Shown piece after piece: positions 7,039 to 13,655 of a stretch of DNA of 49,242 nucleotides. The notes beneath the pieces are model-generated. The model was not told where the DNA came from. It saw only the letters and a list, made by a program, of their open reading frames with translations, and ran no database searches. A program made the position numbers and the translations under genes. Each line of letters begins with the position of its first letter. Positions within the stretch are counted from its first letter, which is position 1. Source of the DNA: an uncultured Omnitrophica bacterium (GTDB lineage: Bacteria > Omnitrophota > Gorgyraeia > JACQQV01); contig CAMTXH010000004.1 of assembly GCA_947085655.1 (NCBI GenBank), positions 1 to 49,242 of the forward strand, written 5' to 3'.

Positions 7039-8397
7039 TTAGCGGTCGAGTTCTCCTGCAATCATGTTGACAGAGCCAAAGGTTGGGACAATATCGGCCA
7101 TCATACCGCCGATAAGGAGGGCCGGGAGGGCGTTCATGATCGGAAAACAGGGCGGGCGGACCCGGACGCGGTAGGGTCGGTCCGAACCGTTACTCACCAC
7201 ATAAAAGCCAAGTTCCCCGTTCGCCCCTTCCACCGCCTGATACGCTTCTCCTTTGGGCGGCCGGATCCCATGCCCCACCATCACCAATTTGAAATGGTCC
7301 ATCAGTCCCTCGATATTGCCGTAGGTGTCTTCCTTCGGGGGGAGAACAATCTTTTTCTCCGGCGCATTGATAAGAGGATGGCGGTCTCCGCTTGTTCCCT
7401 CAAGCGTCGGGTCCATCCGGACCGTTTTCTGTTTGAATCCGGCGGTCCGGCCCATCTTTGCTTCATCCACCATGAAATCGGCCGGAATTTCATTGCCCCG
7501 CTCGTCCACCATGACCGCCCCGCCCGGGATCTTGGAGAATGCCTGTTCCACAATCCGCATACTCTGCTCCATCTCCTCCATCCGGACCAGGTACCGGTCG
7601 AGATTATCCCCTCCCTCGGCGATCGGGATATCAAAATCGAATTGGTCATAGACAAGATACGGCTGACTCCTCCGGACATCGTAATCCACCCCGGTCGCCC
7701 GGAGGAAAGGACCCGTGATCCCGTACGAGACGGCATCCTCTTTGGAAATGACCCCAACCCCTTTCATCCGGTCGACGAAAATCCGGTTCCGGGTGAGGAG
7801 TTTGTCCACTTCTTTCAAAATGCTCCGGACTTCTTTAAAGGTTGGGGCGACTTTTTCCTTGAACCCCTCTGGCAAATCCGCCTTCACTCCTCCGACCCGG
7901 CTATAGGAGATGGTGAGTCGCGCGCCTGTGACCGCTTCTACCAGCTCCCACAAAAACTCCCGCGCCTTGATCATATAAAGGAAGACGGTAAAAGCACCCA
8001 GTTCCATGGCGGAAGCGCCGATACAGGTCAGGTGGTCCGTGATCCGGGAGATTTCGCTCATGATGACGCGTATATAGTCGCACCGCTCCGTCGTTTCGAT
8101 GCCGAGAAGTTTTTCAACCGCCATGCAGTAGCCGACATTGTTGATAAGAGGGGAAACATAATTGAGCCGGTCGGTATAAGGAATGGCATTGTTGTAGGGA
8201 CCGACCTCGCACATCTTCTCGAATCCGCGGTGGAGGTATCCGATCTCCGCATCCGCGCCGGTGACCGTTTCCCCGTCGAGTTCCACGACGATCCGGATGA
8301 CGCCATGCATCGCCGGATGACTCGGACCGACGTTTAAAAGAAGGGTGCGTGTCTCGGCTTTTCCTGTTCTCTGAATTTCTTCCGCTAATTTTTCCAT
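7039..8397 (-). CDS. nuoD: NADH-quinone oxidoreductase subunit D (copy 1)
   Basis: GPSHPAMHG, GYLHRGFEK, DRLNY, C-terminal GELDR; no NiFe CxxC motifs. Confidence 0.96.
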   Translation of the reverse strand: MEKLAEEIQRTGKAETRTLLLNVGPSHPAMHGVIRIVVELDGETVTGADAEIGYLHRGFEKMCEVGPYNNAIPYTDRLNYVSPLINNVGYCMAVEKLLGIETTERCDYIRVIMSEISRITDHLTCIGASAMELGAFTVFLYMIKAREFLWELVEAVTGARLTISYSRVGGVKADLPEGFKEKVAPTFKEVRSILKEVDKLLTRNRIFVDRMKGVGVISKEDAVSYGITGPFLRATGVDYDVRRSQPYLVYDQFDFDIPIAEGGDNLDRYLVRMEEMEQSMRIVEQAFSKIPGGAVMVDERGNEIPADFMVDEAKMGRTAGFKQKTVRMDPTLEGTSGDRHPLINAPEKKIVLPPKEDTYGNIEGLMDHFKLVMVGHGIRPPKGEAYQAVEGANGELGFYVVSNGSDRPYRVRVRPPCFPIMNALPALLIGGMMADIVPTFGSVNMIAGELDR

Positions 8398-8981
8398 CAG
8401 TTAATCGGCCCAATGAGAGGTTGGCGCTTGTTCACCGGGTAATCCTTCCGGAGCGGATGCCCCTCAAATGGTTCATACATCAGAATTCGCTTCAAATTCG
8501 GATGTCCCTTGAACCGGATGCCGAACATGTCCCAGACCTCCCGCTCAAACCAGTCCGCCCCTTTCCAGAGCGACACAAGCGAATCGACTTCCGCCCCTTT
8601 CTCTTCAACCGGCACTTTCAGCCGGAGCCGGTGGTGTTTGGAATGGGAATAAAAGTGATAGGCCACTTCAAACCGCGTTCTTGCCTCTTCAGGGCGTTCC
8701 CATTTTTCCCCTTTAGGGTCCTTTTTCGGTTTCATATAAAAAGGAAGGGGCGATGGTGTAAACGTGGTAGGGGCACTGGCAGGAACCTGGTCAAATTTCA
8801 GATAATCAACGCAGGTCAGGTCCATCAGGAAATTGAAATCAAGTTCCGGGTCCTCCTTTAAGGCCCGGGCCATCTCAAAGAGTCCCTCTTTTTTTAGAAT
8901 GACCGTGTCATCCCCCCGATATTGATGGGTGGCAATGACAATTTTCGGAAAGCGGTTTTTGAGGATTTCGGAGATCATCAT
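8397..8981 (-). CDS. nuoC: NADH-quinone oxidoreductase subunit C (copy 1)
   Basis: DLTCVDY, EREVWDMFGI.F.GHPNLKRILM, GHPLRKDYP. Confidence 0.95.
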   Translation of the reverse strand: MMISEILKNRFPKIVIATHQYRGDDTVILKKEGLFEMARALKEDPELDFNFLMDLTCVDYLKFDQVPASAPTTFTPSPLPFYMKPKKDPKGEKWERPEEARTRFEVAYHFYSHSKHHRLRLKVPVEEKGAEVDSLVSLWKGADWFEREVWDMFGIRFKGHPNLKRILMYEPFEGHPLRKDYPVNKRQPLIGPIN

Positions 8982-9478
8982 GAGGGTTTTGGATGGACAA
9001 AAAGCTTGGTCTGTTTTTCGCCCTTTTCAATCTTCACCTGGAGTTTGATGAGCCCGTCGAGGACATTCTCGGGCCGCGGGGGGCAGCCCGGAATATAGAC
9101 ATCCACCGGAATGATCGTGTCAATACCCATCACGGTGGCGTAGTTATCGTAGAAACCGCCGGTGCAGGTGCAGACGCCGAAGGCAACCACCCACTTCGGC
9201 TCGGTCATCTGGTCATAAACCTGCTTCAAAACAGGCGCGATTTTATGGCTGATCGTTCCGACGACAAAGAGGACATCCGCCTGGCGCGGCGAAAAACGGG
9301 GCAGCCCCGCCCCGAACCGGTCTACATCATAATGGGAGCAGGCGGTCGCCATATATTCCATCCCGCAGCAGGCAGTGACAAAAGGATACTGGAAAATTGA
9401 AAACTTCCGTGCCCAGCCGATCGCGGCATCGAGTTTGGTGGTGAAAAAATCAAGTTTCGTAATATCTACCGTTCCCAC
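8978..9478 (-). CDS. nuoB: NADH-quinone oxidoreductase subunit B (copy 1)
   Basis: [23 protein letters not shown]. Confidence 0.96.
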   Translation of the reverse strand: MGTVDITKLDFFTTKLDAAIGWARKFSIFQYPFVTACCGMEYMATACSHYDVDRFGAGLPRFSPRQADVLFVVGTISHKIAPVLKQVYDQMTEPKWVVAFGVCTCTGGFYDNYATVMGIDTIIPVDVYIPGCPPRPENVLDGLIKLQVKIEKGEKQTKLFVHPKPS

Positions 9479-9825
9479 TCAAGCGCCCCTTTTTTCCATG
9501 CATAAAAAAGTCCGACCGCCAGCACAAAAAGGAAACTCGCCATTTCAATAAACCCGAAAAGTCCGAGTTTCCGGTAAAGGACCGCCCAGGGAAAAAGAAA
9601 GATGATTTCAATATCGAAAATAATAAAGAGCATAGCCACAAGGTAAAACTTGACTGAGAACCGGCCCATCGGCTGCCTGAACTGCTCCTGGCCGCACTCA
9701 AAAGGTGTTTCCTTCTCGGGGGTCGGCTGCGGACGCCCAAGGAGCCGATGTCCAATCACCATCGCCCCCGCAATCATTGCAGACAGAATTGTCAGAATCA
9801 ATATGCCAACATATTCTACCGCCAT
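9466..9825 (-). CDS. nuoA: NADH-quinone oxidoreductase subunit A (copy 1)
   Basis: PFECG, FDIEIIFLFPWA, KKGALEW. Confidence 0.96.
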   Translation of the reverse strand: MAVEYVGILILTILSAMIAGAMVIGHRLLGRPQPTPEKETPFECGQEQFRQPMGRFSVKFYLVAMLFIIFDIEIIFLFPWAVLYRKLGLFGFIEMASFLFVLAVGLFYAWKKGALEWER

Positions 9826-9900: not shown

Positions 9901-9928
9901 TTGACTGTTACTCCTTCTGTTGTATGAT
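9901..9928 (+). promoter_or_regulatory. Sigma70 promoter for the FNR-like gene
   Basis: TTGACT-16 bp-TATGAT, 12 nt upstream of ATG 9941. Confidence 0.5.
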
Positions 9929-9940
9929 GATAAGAAAACC

Positions 9941-10651
9941 ATGCCAAGAAAGGAAATCTTCCAAACCACCTTTGAATCCTCCTATGACATGGGGGCCCAG
10001 ACTAAACATTTCCGGTTCAAACTCCACAATCCCTTCTCGTTTCAGGCGGGCCAGTTTGTGATGGTGTACGCTTTGAATGAGCCGGAAAACCGGAAGCGTC
10101 CCTATTCGATTGCCTCTCCCCCTTCCCTTCAAGGAGCGCTTGAATTCTGCTTGAACCGTGTTGAGGGCGGTTTCATGTCCAATTACCTCTGCGATTTAAA
10201 AGGGGGGGAGACGGTCCCGATGGAAGGGCCGTACGGAAAGTTCACCATCCGGGAGCCGATGGAGAAAGGAGTGCTTTTTGTTGCAACCGGAACCGGCATC
10301 GCCCCTTTCCGGAGTCAAATTAACGACCTCTTCGAAACCAGAAAAGCGCAGGATAAGGAAATCTGGTTGGTCTACGGCATCCGGTATGAAACCGATATCC
10401 TCTATAAGGAAGAATGGGAGAAACTGGCGGCTGCAAGACCGAATTTTCATTATATTCAAACCATCTCCCGTCCCAAAACCTGGACGGGTGAGAAGGGATA
10501 CGTCCAGGAAAAAATCAAAAAGTTTATCCAGGATCCTCAAGGGCTCGACGTTTATATCTGCGGTCTGCCGGCCATGGTGGAGGATGTCCAAAAGACCTGC
10601 GCCGAGATAGGATTTCCAAAGGAAAAAGTTCATTTTGAAAAATATGTCTAA
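9941..10651 (+). CDS. FNR-like FAD/NAD(P)-binding oxidoreductase without an Fe-S domain
   Basis: RPYSIAS, GGFMSNYL, GPYG, ATGTGIAPF, YICG...MV, C-terminal FEKY. Confidence 0.9.
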   Translation: MPRKEIFQTTFESSYDMGAQTKHFRFKLHNPFSFQAGQFVMVYALNEPENRKRPYSIASPPSLQGALEFCLNRVEGGFMSNYLCDLKGGETVPMEGPYGKFTIREPMEKGVLFVATGTGIAPFRSQINDLFETRKAQDKEIWLVYGIRYETDILYKEEWEKLAAARPNFHYIQTISRPKTWTGEKGYVQEKIKKFIQDPQGLDVYICGLPAMVEDVQKTCAEIGFPKEKVHFEKYV

Positions 10652-11037
10652 TGAAGCCGAGACTTGCGGAGCGTCAGCGAACGCAAGTCTCTGGCTGAAT
10701 TAGACCCCGCCCTTTTGGCGAAAGTAGATATGTATTATGTTTATGTGATACACTCTGGAGAGAATAATAGCATTTATATTGGAAGTACAAGCAATTTAGA
10801 TCGGAGACTCTCACAACATAAGTGTCGAGGTCCGTTTAAATTAGTATACTACGAGGCATACTTACACAGAACGGATGCTTTAAATCGCGAACGCAAATTG
10901 AAACATCATGGAAGTGGTATTGGCCATCTTAAGAAACGGCTCGTTAACAGTTTGTCGAGTTAATCCGCCAAAAGGGCGGGGTTTAATTCGGCCGTACAAC
11001 TTACGTCGCCCATGGCTCCGTAAGTTGTGGCCTCATT
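10650..11037. mobile_element. GIY-YIG gene cassette bounded by ~70-bp imperfect inverted repeats
   Basis: Inner IR 10693-10720 / 10966-10993 (26 of 28 complementary); homologous outer hairpins; termini AATGAAGCC...GGCCTCATT. Confidence 0.7.
10730..10963 (+). CDS. Small stand-alone GIY-YIG nuclease family protein, 77 aa
   Basis: YYVYVI...IYIGST...RRL..H...YEAY...A..RE..LK; start at ATG 10730; AT-richer than its neighbours. Confidence 0.88.
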   Translation: MYYVYVIHSGENNSIYIGSTSNLDRRLSQHKCRGPFKLVYYEAYLHRTDALNRERKLKHHGSGIGHLKKRLVNSLSS

Positions 11038-11041
11038 GAAA

Positions 11042-12442
11042 ATGCACGGCGATTCTTACATTACTCCCCCAAAACTACTCTGGTGTGCCGGTATCACAAC
11101 CGTCCTGACCTGGCTTTCCTCTCTCCTTGGCCTTGACTCAAGACAACTCACCGCAACCGGCGTTTTCCTGTTTATTGTGGTCGCCACCCTTTTTTTCTGG
11201 AAGATGCGTCTTTCCTTCGGGCTGATCGGCCTCACCGTGCTCATGCTCTTCGGCCTCCTCGACACTCCCCACCTCATCGAGTTTGCGAGTCTTGACGTTG
11301 TCCTTTTTCTGGTCGGGATGATGCTTGTCGTCGGGTTTCTGGAGGAGCGGAAGTTTTTCGAATATGTGATTGAAAAGACCCTCCGCCTCATCGGAAAAGA
11401 CGCCAATAAGCTCCTCATCGTGATGCTCGTTGCCTCCTTTATCTCGGCGGCACTTGTGGATGAAGTGACCTCTATCCTTTTTATGTGTTCCACGATGCTA
11501 CAACTGACCCGCCGCTACAAACTCGACCCGAAGCCCTTTATCTTGATGCTTGTTTTTTGCACCAACCTCGGCTCCAGCGCCACCGTGGTCGGGAATCCGA
11601 TCGGGGTGTTGATTGCGATGCGCGGGGGGTTCACCTTTCTTGATTTTTTGAGATGGTCTGCTCCTGTTGCCCTGGTCGCACTCACCATTGTCATTGTCTT
11701 TTCTTTCATCTTCTTCCGGAAAAGCATTCAGGAACTCCGGAAGGCGATGAAGGGGGAAAAAGAAAGTCCGGTTCATCTTGAGTCCATCTCCCAAAAGGAC
11801 CTCTGGGCCTGCTGGGCCCTTTTTTTGGTCACCGTTGCCCTCCTTGTCTCTCATCACCACCTGGAGGAACTCCTCCACCTTGAAAAAAATACCCTCCTTT
11901 TGGGCGTGCCGTTTGCCGCGGGGGGTGTTGCCCTCTTTTTGAGCGGTGAAAACGCAAGAGACCTAGCCGAAAAACGGGTCGACTGGTGGACCCTTGCTTT
12001 CTTCATCGCCCTTTTTGCCAAAGTCGGAACGCTCAAATATACCGGCGTCACCGGAGTCATTGCGAACCGTCTCGCCGAGGTTGCACATGGAAATTACGGG
12101 CTCCTTTTTGCCGGTGTCACCTGGTCCTCGGGACTCTTGAGCGCATTTCTGGATAACATCCTTGCGGTTGCCATGTACGCCCCTGTGCTCGCCGATCTTC
12201 AAACCCTCGGCTTCTACATCATTCCCCTCTGGTGGGGGATGCTGGTCGGATGCGCCTACGGCGGAAACCTCACTATGATCGGCTCAACCGCCAATATTGT
12301 GGCCGCAGGGGTCATTGAACGACGGAAAGAGGGGCACTTTTCCTTTATGGAGTGGTTCATCCCCGGGTTATGGGTAGTCCTTGCCACGCTGATTCCCGCC
12401 ACCCTCCTGATCTTTATCCAGATCGGCCTCATGCCTAAGTAA
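11042..12442 (+). CDS. ArsB/NhaD/SLC13-type ion-transporter superfamily permease
   Basis: Many TM helices; SAALVDEVTSI, TVVGNPIG, SAFLDNI, GGNLTMIGSTANIV; substrate cannot be read from sequence. Confidence 0.85.
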   Translation: MHGDSYITPPKLLWCAGITTVLTWLSSLLGLDSRQLTATGVFLFIVVATLFFWKMRLSFGLIGLTVLMLFGLLDTPHLIEFASLDVVLFLVGMMLVVGFLEERKFFEYVIEKTLRLIGKDANKLLIVMLVASFISAALVDEVTSILFMCSTMLQLTRRYKLDPKPFILMLVFCTNLGSSATVVGNPIGVLIAMRGGFTFLDFLRWSAPVALVALTIVIVFSFIFFRKSIQELRKAMKGEKESPVHLESISQKDLWACWALFLVTVALLVSHHHLEELLHLEKNTLLLGVPFAAGGVALFLSGENARDLAEKRVDWWTLAFFIALFAKVGTLKYTGVTGVIANRLAEVAHGNYGLLFAGVTWSSGLLSAFLDNILAVAMYAPVLADLQTLGFYIIPLWWGMLVGCAYGGNLTMIGSTANIVAAGVIERRKEGHFSFMEWFIPGLWVVLATLIPATLLIFIQIGLMPK

Positions 12443-12529: not shown

Positions 12530-12898
12530 ATGCTTGATAATTATAGTTACAACTATCTTTTCATTGCAATCTTTACCGCTGTCGCGGTTATTTTCCCGCT
12601 TCTCCCCATCCTTCTCGCCCGCTTTGTCGCCCCCAAAAAGCCGAATCCGATTAAAAACGATACGTACGAATGCGGTGTCGAGACGGTCGGAGAAACCTGG
12701 GTCCAGTTCCGCGTCCAGTATTACCTTTTCGCCCTCATTTTTGTGATTTTCGATATTGAGGCGATCTTTGTCCTCCCGTGGGCGGTCGCCTTTAACAAAC
12801 TCGGCCTCTATGCGTTTGTGGAGATGCTGATTTTCCTTGCGATCCTTGCCGGCGGCTGGGCCTACGCCTGGAAAAAGGGTGTTTTAGAGTGGATCTAG
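12530..12898 (+). CDS. nuoA: NADH-quinone oxidoreductase subunit A (copy 2)
   Basis: [24 protein letters not shown]. Confidence 0.96.
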
Positions 12899-12900
12899 AG

Positions 12901-12991
12901 TAGGGACGTTTCTAGTTCTGGCCCCAATGTGTCCCCTGTCCTCATTTTTAAACAAAAGGGACAGGTCGGAGCCAGGTGTAGAAACGTCCCT
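12901..12991. repeat. REP-like inverted repeat (GGGACGTTT family)
   Basis: agggacgtttcta 12902-12914 / tagaaacgtccct 12979-12991; first 22 nt identical to 40983-41004. Confidence 0.8.
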
Positions 12992-13001
12992 GGGAGTGGA
13001 C

Positions 13002-13655
13002 ATGACCATTGATGAAGGACTGAAGAGCGAACTCCAAAAACAGGGAATCTTCCTGACAAGTCTCCAGGATCTTTACAACTGGGGCCGTCGCTCCTCGATC
13101 TGGCCGATGCAGTTCGGGCTCGCCTGCTGCGCGATTGAGATGATTGCCACCGCCTGCGCCCGTTATGATATCGCCCGGTTCGGTGCAGAACTCTTCCGCG
13201 CCTCCCCCCGTCAGGCAGACCTCATGATTGTGGCCGGCACCGTCACCAAAAAAATGACCCCTCAAATTGTCCGTCTCTACAATCAAATGGCGGAACCGAA
13301 ATATGTCATTACGATGGGGGCCTGTTCCATCTCAGGCGGGCCTTTCCGGGAAGGATATAATGTCCTGCAGGGGCTTGACCGGTACCTGCCGATAGACGTG
13401 CATATCCCGGGTTGCCCTCCCCGCCCCGAAGCCCTTCTTGAAGGGATCATGAAACTCCAGAAAAAAATCGATGAGCAGAAACTCTGGCAGCTGGAATGGT
13501 ATCAGAAAGGAATCCGGCGTGAATTTCCGGTGCCGGCATTCGGTCCGCACGGTCTTGTTCCCCGGTACAATGCGGAGGTTTTTGATCCCTTGAAAGGAAA
13601 TATCGGAACCGTCAAACCGGAAAAGGAGCCGGAATTCAGTCATGGAACCGCTTGA
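13002..13655 (+). CDS. nuoB: NADH-quinone oxidoreductase subunit B (copy 2)
   Basis: [24 protein letters not shown]; start at ATG 13002 after GGAG, since the longer ORF start lies in the repeat. Confidence 0.95.

Follow-up and report, generated by a model that had tools for sequence, protein, structure and literature searches.

What is the 388-bp segment that fills the gap between two host genes in a genome of an uncultured Omnitrophica bacterium, and how did it come to lie there? The window analysed here, a stretch of 49,242 nucleotides (nt) from contig CAMTXH010000004.1 of assembly GCA_947085655.1, holds at positions 10650..11037, on the plus strand, a small unit in which a gene for a GIY-YIG nuclease is enclosed by an inner inverted repeat and, further out, by an inverted pair of hairpin-bearing arms, so that the order reads arm, inner repeat, open reading frame (ORF), inner repeat, arm. 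The whole unit is an insertion, present at two gene junctions of the genome, and has two layers. As far as can be judged from the sequence comparisons below, the first layer is a cassette, a single-domain GIY-YIG gene enclosed by its own inverted repeat, which belongs to a family spanning phyla, and the second is the placement of this cassette at the centre of an inverted pair of 51-55-nt hairpin units that are abundant in the class. Judged in the same way, the element is a variant of the nuclease-plus-hairpin type known from the Ssn family, nested in a class-wide hairpin repeat, and is not unprecedented. By analogy with the Ssn enzymes, we lean on balance towards reading the 388 bp as a selfish, composite DNA element, in which an Ssn-like cassette is copied together with its arms.

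A first, sequence-only reading of the locus had proposed a small insertion that lacks a transposase and takes up the entire space between its neighbours, and this proposal has held up, because both junctions at which the unit was found are empty in kin genomes. In a genome of the same family with the same gene order (G002; permease orthologues of 74% identity, and 71% in a second kin genome, G001), the oxidoreductase-permease junction consists of a TAA stop codon, 12 nt with a ribosome-binding site, and an ATG. The second copy in the genome under study (G000; 1.57 Mb in 27 contigs) is a 260-nt stretch at C3:93949-94208, between gcvT and gcvH, and is 75% identical to the window element over positions 1-160 and 279-388; it retains both arms and both ends of the ORF, the middle of which is gone, and the window copy is the only full one in the genome. 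The gcvT|gcvH junction is empty in both G002 and G001, in which the two genes overlap by ATGA, and in the genome under study gcvT reads into the arm of the inserted copy and gains seven residues. Both insertion points lie directly 5' of the Shine-Dalgarno sequence of the downstream gene.

The upstream neighbour, an FAD/NAD-binding oxidoreductase gene (9920..10651, plus strand; Pfam PF00175, PF00970), ends in a TAA (10649-10651), the last two bases of which are also the first two of the element, and the ATG of the downstream neighbour, a CitMHS/ArsB-type permease gene (11042..12442, plus strand; Pfam PF03600, E 1.3e-56), begins four bases past its end; the permease start was taken as the ATG at 11042, the alternative GTG at 11027 falling inside the right arm. 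The two genes form an operon-like pair. The left outer arm (10650..10701, minus strand) and the right outer arm (10985..11037, plus strand; AATTCG...CTCATT) are each one hairpin repeat unit (hpB), the left one inverted, and match R1, the covariance model of the arm unit that was used for genome and class-wide searches, with 63.4 bits (E 4.7e-16) and 68.9 bits (E 7.5e-18), respectively. The stem of the left arm (10659-10668 / 10682-10691) is paired at 10 of 10 positions, and that of the right arm joins ACAACTTACG at 10996-11005 to CGTAAGTTGT at 11019-11028, with an outer GGCC pairing at 10990-10993 / 11029-11032. The inner inverted repeat, of 28 nt, has its left half at 10693..10720 (plus strand; core CCCCGCCCTTTTGGCG) and its right half at 10966..10993 (plus strand), which by itself makes a small hairpin with a T-rich run after it; an inverted-repeat search confirmed that the halves are complementary at 26 of 28 positions (93%), and the two exceptions, read on the ORF strand, are G:T-type mismatches. 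The termini of the element, AATGAAGCC and GGCCTCATT, are mutually inverted, the terminal 23 nt pairing at 78%, and its non-coding part amounts to about 155 nt.

Folded as single-stranded DNA (ssDNA), the left and right arms reach z scores of -8.1 and -5.7, each matched by 0 of 200 shuffles, and the whole element forms a four-way junction with a z score of -8.3, for which 0 of 100 shuffles fold as well. Because no shuffle folded as well, the inverted-repeat structure of the element is more than chance. Rfam scans of the element region (E up to 10) and of four other copies (E up to 5) returned no family that explains the arms, and the former returned no intron match and no ribozyme core of a group I intron around the ORF; no sigma-70-like promoter of the ORF's own was found in the element. 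A contig joint from 10717 to 10967, with 19 other letters between, was considered as an empty allele and rejected, since only 23-nt sides match; it represents another ORF-less hairpin locus. The contig with this joint, from runs X1, X2 and X4 and at the genome's depth, has the same CCCCGCCCTTTTGG stem round a 19-nt loop. Around the locus, two separate nuoA/nuoB-like gene sets were recognised from ORF translations only, at 8397-9825 (minus strand) and 12530-13655 (plus strand).

The nuclease and its inner repeat

The ORF within the inverted arms (10730..10963, plus strand) encodes a single-domain protein of 77 amino acids (aa), and its assignment as a GIY-YIG nuclease, made at first from the letters, was confirmed by a match of residues 1-60 to PF01541 (E 3.5e-13; 50.1 bits, cut-off 22.6). 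The only Pfam matches are three overlapping GIY-YIG-type models (PF01541, PF10544 and PF13455), and among solved structures the UPF0213 protein 1zg2 matches best (E 2e-4), with Slx1 next. The protein keeps all 22 columns that are invariant in an alignment of 16 sequences (A2), among them Y3, Y5, Y16, G18, R26, H30 and E54; the conserved tyrosines of the GIY and YIG motifs, the arginine and the metal-binding glutamate presumably have the catalytic roles generally assigned to them. The protein lacks eight residues of a conserved loop that comes after His30. Because the protein otherwise falls in the group with a long loop, this deletion is independent of a natural subfamily with an equally short loop, which includes seven arm-flanked ORFs and four ORFs from Patescibacteria; the existence of this subfamily led us to reject the deletion as proof of a dead gene.

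Homologues of the cassette were collected by tblastn against a species-genome collection (248 relatives confirmed, 80 loci kept) and by a protein database search with the window protein (285 matches, mostly of 84-86 aa). Among the 106 loci with enough flank, an inverted repeat scoring at least 10, the threshold, flanks the ORF in 68, versus 19 of 106 in the direct-orientation control, and the core CCxxxC[AC]C is present in 53 of those 68. The inner repeat of the window scores 22 (28 nt, 2 mismatches) and carries this core. The cassette repeat, the core of which can be written as CCCxGCxC / GxGCxGGG, usually abuts or overlaps the stop codon of the ORF, and homologous ORFs of other phyla have this core on their flanks. 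Some of these cassettes lie inside the ribosomal RNA (rRNA) genes of Patescibacteria (the candidate phyla radiation, CPR): an Rfam scan of 14 repeat-flanked loci placed the ORF inside a match to small- or large-subunit (SSU/LSU) rRNA in 7 (L015, L020, L024, L033, L051, L066, L077) and about 50-100 nt upstream of a transfer RNA (tRNA) in 4 (L019, L027, L067, L076). The contexts of the cassettes in Patescibacteria are unrelated to one another and share no homology beyond the cassette's own repeat. Two loci that resembled RNase P RNA by eye were not confirmed by Rfam.

Repeat type and protein lineage are inherited together. On the protein tree (102 ORFs, 87 columns, 8 rows having been left out for length or internal stops), 34 fine repeat classes require 33 changes, which is the minimum, compared with 47.4 on average and no fewer than 44 in shuffles, and eight coarse (5-mer) classes require 17 changes, compared with a shuffled mean of 36.8, both figures being inflated by near-copies. 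The outer arms are distributed differently from the inner repeat: the ORF lies between a paired minus and plus arm in 11 loci, which belong to Omnitrophota-titled records or class relatives, and no arm unit was found in the 64 searched loci (L011-L081) of records not titled Omnitrophota. Outside the class, homologues have the inner repeat and no arms. At the two tRNA-proximal loci L067 and L076 (Zambryskibacteria / Nomurabacteria; about 1400-1900), the GIY-YIG ORF is flanked by a repeated long hairpin, CCCCTCACATGGA..., and the 5' end of the tRNA gene that follows is partially duplicated there as well.

The outer arms and their relation to the cassette

The arms constitute a separate repeat family, which shows Watson-Crick covariation and no strand bias. 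In an alignment of 32 arm units of 51-55 nt, 23 from the genome under study and 9 from Omnitrophota-titled loci, 97.7% of cells are paired and double-sided changes occur in 14 of the 17 pairs, a result reached by 0 of 500 shuffles; the covariation is almost purely from one Watson-Crick pair to another, and G:U-type pairs are rare. The arms, between which the sequence-only reading had seen compensatory changes, are conserved hairpins. R1 matches 26 units at about 21 sites of the genome. Six sites have inverted pairs (the window, C3, C7:79950-80116, C14, C22:78359-78506 and C5:30319-30486), and at each of the remaining sites a solo unit follows a variable GC-rich hairpin. Solo arms and ORF-less copies both exist besides the decayed copy on C3. 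By eye, a CCC(C)GC(C/G)C-TTTT repeat was read at the centre of 5 of the 6 paired sites, and a similar one at about 3 of 15 solo sites. Within the same class, R1 matches were found in 45 of 60 other genomes, at up to at least 95 per genome. On this evidence from sequence and copy number, the arm is a REP-like unit (repetitive extragenic palindrome) that is not private to the nuclease.

The arm-flanked ORFs derive from more than one protein lineage. The 12 arm-flanked ORFs carry five different repeat cores, and the hypothesis that they form a single clade was rejected by the AU test (p 0.0105). One class relative, G043 (L275-L285), yielded 11 matches to GIY-YIG and at least 95 to the arm, and five of its elements are arm-flanked and represent three cassette lineages; two of the ORFs are broken (a stop in L279, a truncation in L282). 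Arms and cassette were copied together within genomes, since copies in G043 can be aligned with their arms included (L275/L278, 72% over 388 nt; L279/L282, 77% over 375 nt), and this end-to-end alignment holds within lineages, the pair in the window genome being 75% identical. The presence of several lineages inside arms implies that cassettes entered arm pairs, or were exchanged within them, more than once, and the alignments indicate that the composite of arm and cassette, once assembled, is copied as a unit.

Several further observations concern what the arm units adjoin. The solo units at C7:31145-31196, C5:30434-30486 and C2:17824-17877 (L094, L095, L104) end in CTCATTGACA; TTGACA at these arm ends is followed 17 nt on by TATACT or TAAAAT, and because of this spacing the sequence may be read as a -35/-10 promoter that starts inside the repeat terminus. 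The arm unit of L102 (1564-1617) abuts tRNA-Ser at 1618, that of L103 (1500-1554) follows a tRNA-Lys that ends at 1497, and that of L099 (288-338) lies between tRNA-Arg (396-469) and tRNA-His (136-214), with a partial second copy of the 3' end of tRNA-Arg just past the unit; the gap between arm and tRNA is 0-2 nt in two cases among these three loci. Opposite the solo arm C5:15777-15829, on the other strand and at a distance of about 70 nt, there is a cobalamin riboswitch (87.6 bits; L003:1202-1429, on C5), the only real match in the Rfam scans described above.

Kinship with Ssn nucleases and competing explanations

The Ssn family consists of single-domain GIY-YIG nucleases, of which SsnA of Neisseria meningitidis has 94 aa (Chenal et al. 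2025, PMC11893778). According to the main text of that report, Ssn enzymes bind a hairpin repeat (NTS/SRM) and cut ssDNA beside the hairpin, but not double-stranded DNA or RNA, SsnA does not bind RNA, the loop of its substrate is dispensable, and the stem may be split over two strands; the repeats occur in hundreds of copies, lie on both sides of the gene in 42% of homologues, and the arrangement NTS-ssnA-NTS is likened by its authors to insertion sequences and to RAYT/REP (PMC11893778). The same main text does not mention Patescibacteria, Omnitrophota or rRNA, and its supplementary lists may include such homologues. The window element resembles this description in that its protein is also a single-domain GIY-YIG protein of less than 100 aa, the gene lies between inverted hairpin repeats of which other copies are dispersed over the genome (here 26 units in all), and the stems are rich in CCCCGC/GCGGGG. 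It differs in its layout: a split hairpin holds the gene in its loop, and a further hairpin unit, of another kind, lies on the outside. The impression that the architecture is unlike any described system can therefore not be upheld, NTS-ssnA-NTS being comparable and REPtrons (see below) being so by analogy. Beyond PMC11893778 and PMC11270868, no published description of repeat-bounded GIY-YIG cassettes or of the arm repeat was found in the main texts of the open literature.

The comparison at the protein level was made with SRM-flanked homologues from Sphingopyxis in place of SsnA. The only small GIY-YIG protein found in Neisseria lactamica (L261) was rejected as SsnA, since it looks UPF0213-like and has no NTS alongside, and the 80 loci found by the published NTS pattern contained no GIY-YIG ORF. 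One Sphingopyxis homologue (L264), which has three matches to the published SRM pattern alongside, shows 38% identity with the window protein (E 4e-12), a nearer relation than that to UPF0213-type proteins (L261, E 7e-4; 1zg2, E 2e-4), and hhalign relates the family to Sphingopyxis Ssn-type proteins with a probability of 98.1%, over the catalytic core only. These sequence similarities suggest that the cassette family is the nearest relative found of the Ssn single-strand-DNA nucleases, and a nuclease that recognises or cuts hairpins, as the sequence-only reading had supposed, would fit what is reported of Ssn enzymes (PMC11893778).

In the favoured reading of the 388 bp as a selfish composite DNA element, the steps of which are modelled on SsnA, the hairpins would form when the DNA is single-stranded, during replication, repair or uptake, and the small nuclease would bind its cognate stem and nick the single strand beside it. 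Cutting would be expected of ssDNA only, beside the CCCCGCCC stem. Host repair or replication would then copy the cassette to further sites that bear hairpins or are permissive, and later decay of the ORF would leave gene-less hairpin copies. GIY-YIG domains are not known to perform strand transfer, so the insertion step must be the host's, and this host-mediated insertion is the weakest part of the model.

Several results weigh against this reading. No target-site duplication was found at either insertion site, and the metagenome contigs aligned to the locus have the filled form only, with no activity, excision or polymorphism seen. Because copies within a genome are just 72-77% identical, no recent jump is documented, and the genome's only full ORF, which lacks the 8-residue loop, may be inactive. 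Nine relatives carry arms without a GIY-YIG match to the window query, among them G056 (89% complete) with at least 95 arm matches, so that arms need not have the nuclease in cis, and seven class relatives have GIY-YIG matches but no arms. As for the kinship with Ssn, hhalign aligns columns 4-67 only and the C-terminal third differs from that of the Sphingopyxis proteins, and the published SRM search pattern (HGTCWY...) has no match in 10600-11100 and 11 matches genome-wide, compared with 11-17 in 5 shuffles, while the positive control L264 gives 3. The protein tree, with 87 columns only, is weakly resolved.

Among the alternatives, classical homing survives best, and we consider it unlikely. 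It would make the palindromes or gene-less hairpins residents of the genome, the double-stranded ORF-less copies of which are cut by a free-standing GIY-YIG enzyme and receive its gene by copying through the homology of the arms, about 70 nt long. Paired copies that lack the ORF and share the inner repeat do exist on C7, C22 and C14, at the sites given above, the arm-flanked ORFs are polyphyletic, with three cassette lineages in the arms of the single genome G043, and an NCBIfam scan of the ORF, which yielded weak sub-threshold matches only, included the group I intron endonuclease model TIGR01453 (E 1.4e-4, below the cut-off). However, at least two of the ORF-less copies look decayed rather than like virgin targets, since the C3 copy keeps both ends of the ORF and the centre of the C14 copy resembles the C-terminal end of the ORF (by eye only), and the Patescibacteria cassettes, as noted, share no homology beyond their own repeat. 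Known GIY-YIG homing enzymes, moreover, carry a DNA-binding domain, and the window protein consists of the catalytic domain only. The characterised GIY-YIG members are described in the main text of PMC11893778 as modular.

The RNA-level alternative, in which the stems act in the transcript, as an intervening sequence of the RNase III type or as a REP-type stabiliser or insulator of mRNA, and the nuclease gene is a passenger, is in our estimation distinctly improbable. It would suit the position of the element, which has no promoter of its own, between two genes arranged as in an operon, the relatives at helix positions of rRNA genes that must remain functional, the two stem mismatches of the window, which are G:U-compatible on the sense strand, and the several arm units that end just before a ribosome-binding site, a -35/-10-like promoter sequence or a tRNA gene. 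The mismatches as a whole do not agree with it: across loci, the inner repeat has 15 mismatches of the G:T type on the ORF strand, 10 of the A:C type and 14 others, and the arm stems have 5 of the G:T type versus 4 of the A:C type. Because the G:T type is not favoured over the A:C type and there is no strand asymmetry, this pattern points to hairpins and palindromes that act as DNA, and the G:T-only mismatches that had been noted in the window copy, where they are real, are not a trait of the family. The almost purely Watson-Crick covariation of the arms, the absence of Rfam matches and the failure of SsnA to bind RNA likewise speak against action in the transcript. Of the earlier expectation that the arms fold as RNA or ssDNA, then, the part on RNA is not supported by the mismatch counts, which point to DNA hairpins.

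Two kinds of rRNA-gene insertion are related to this question. The intervening sequences of 23S rRNA are removed by RNase III; like the window element, they are closed by a stem and may bear a small ORF, and they lie at helix tips, but the window element lies outside an rRNA gene, its ORF is a nuclease, and its stem gives no evidence of selection at the RNA level. The other kind is known from the CPR, in the rRNA genes of which GIY-YIG ORFs are listed within non-intron insertions (Tsurumaki et al. 2024, PMC11270868); the main text of that study describes no bounding repeat. These ORFs belong to the same protein family, as is also seen in the 7 of 14 homologous loci that lie inside an rRNA match, whereas the window copy lies at a junction of protein genes, in another phylum, and has extra outer arms.

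The arrangement of the element also recalls that of transposase-associated repeats. REPtrons are RAYT (Y1 transposase) genes bracketed by inverted REP/BIME repeats, and the likeness is that an enzyme gene lies between inverted copies of a dispersed palindromic repeat, the hairpins of REPtrons being recognised as ssDNA. In the window, however, no Y1 (HUH) transposase is found between the inverted repeats; the enclosed gene encodes a GIY-YIG hydrolytic nuclease, for which covalent cut-and-rejoin chemistry of the HUH/Y1 kind is therefore not expected, and the repeat, which is modular, has a longer unit (51-55 nt). A reading in which a Y1 (RAYT-like) transposase moves the arms as ordinary REP/BIME-type repeats, the cassette having merely landed in one of them with no role in their spread, is very improbable, since, although arm counts are far above GIY-YIG counts, nine relatives have arms alone, and the genome has one Y1_Tnp gene (C11:48167-48889; PF01797, E 1.3e-15), this gene is flanked by a 12-nt inverted repeat of its own with no R1 match near, and the GTAG/CGTC tags typical of RAYT-associated REPs (PMC3733652) are not seen in the arm consensus. 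The Y1_Tnp gene, the only one of the genome, lies in an AT-rich pocket, and its inverted repeat reads GTAGACGCTTTA.

What the element may mean

A more far-reaching extension of the favoured reading, to which we attach a low probability, would make these units of 300-390 bp the smallest autonomous mobile elements of bacteria. By analogy with SsnA, an Ssn-type nuclease of about 80 aa would read its own split stem in ssDNA, one half of the stem guiding nicks at sites that hold the other half and thereby seeding copying into hairpin tips. The idea that one half of the stem may serve as a DNA guide follows from the report that the halves of the SsnA stem can lie on separate strands in vitro (main text of PMC11893778). 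Nicking guided in this way would account for the occurrence of cassettes at helix tips of rRNA, beside tRNA genes and in REP-like palindromes across phyla, and the Omnitrophota-type arms would then be a host-specific extension of the same principle.

The finding links three subjects that have until now been dealt with apart: the Ssn nucleases that act on ssDNA with their hairpins, the GIY-YIG ORFs that occur within rRNA genes in ultra-small bacteria, and a hairpin repeat that abounds in this class. If the nuclease acts on the stem that encloses it, many natural pairs of enzyme and hairpin would be available, because the repeat type tracks the protein lineage; the diversity of natural nuclease-hairpin pairs is named by the authors of the Ssn study, in its main text, as a resource for ssDNA tools (PMC11893778). 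For annotation, it matters that such units, which are easily overlooked, sit in operon junctions, where they alter the ends of genes, as in the seven residues added to gcvT, and break translational coupling. The element itself is a candidate for a minimal selfish element that would need a single protein of 77-88 aa.

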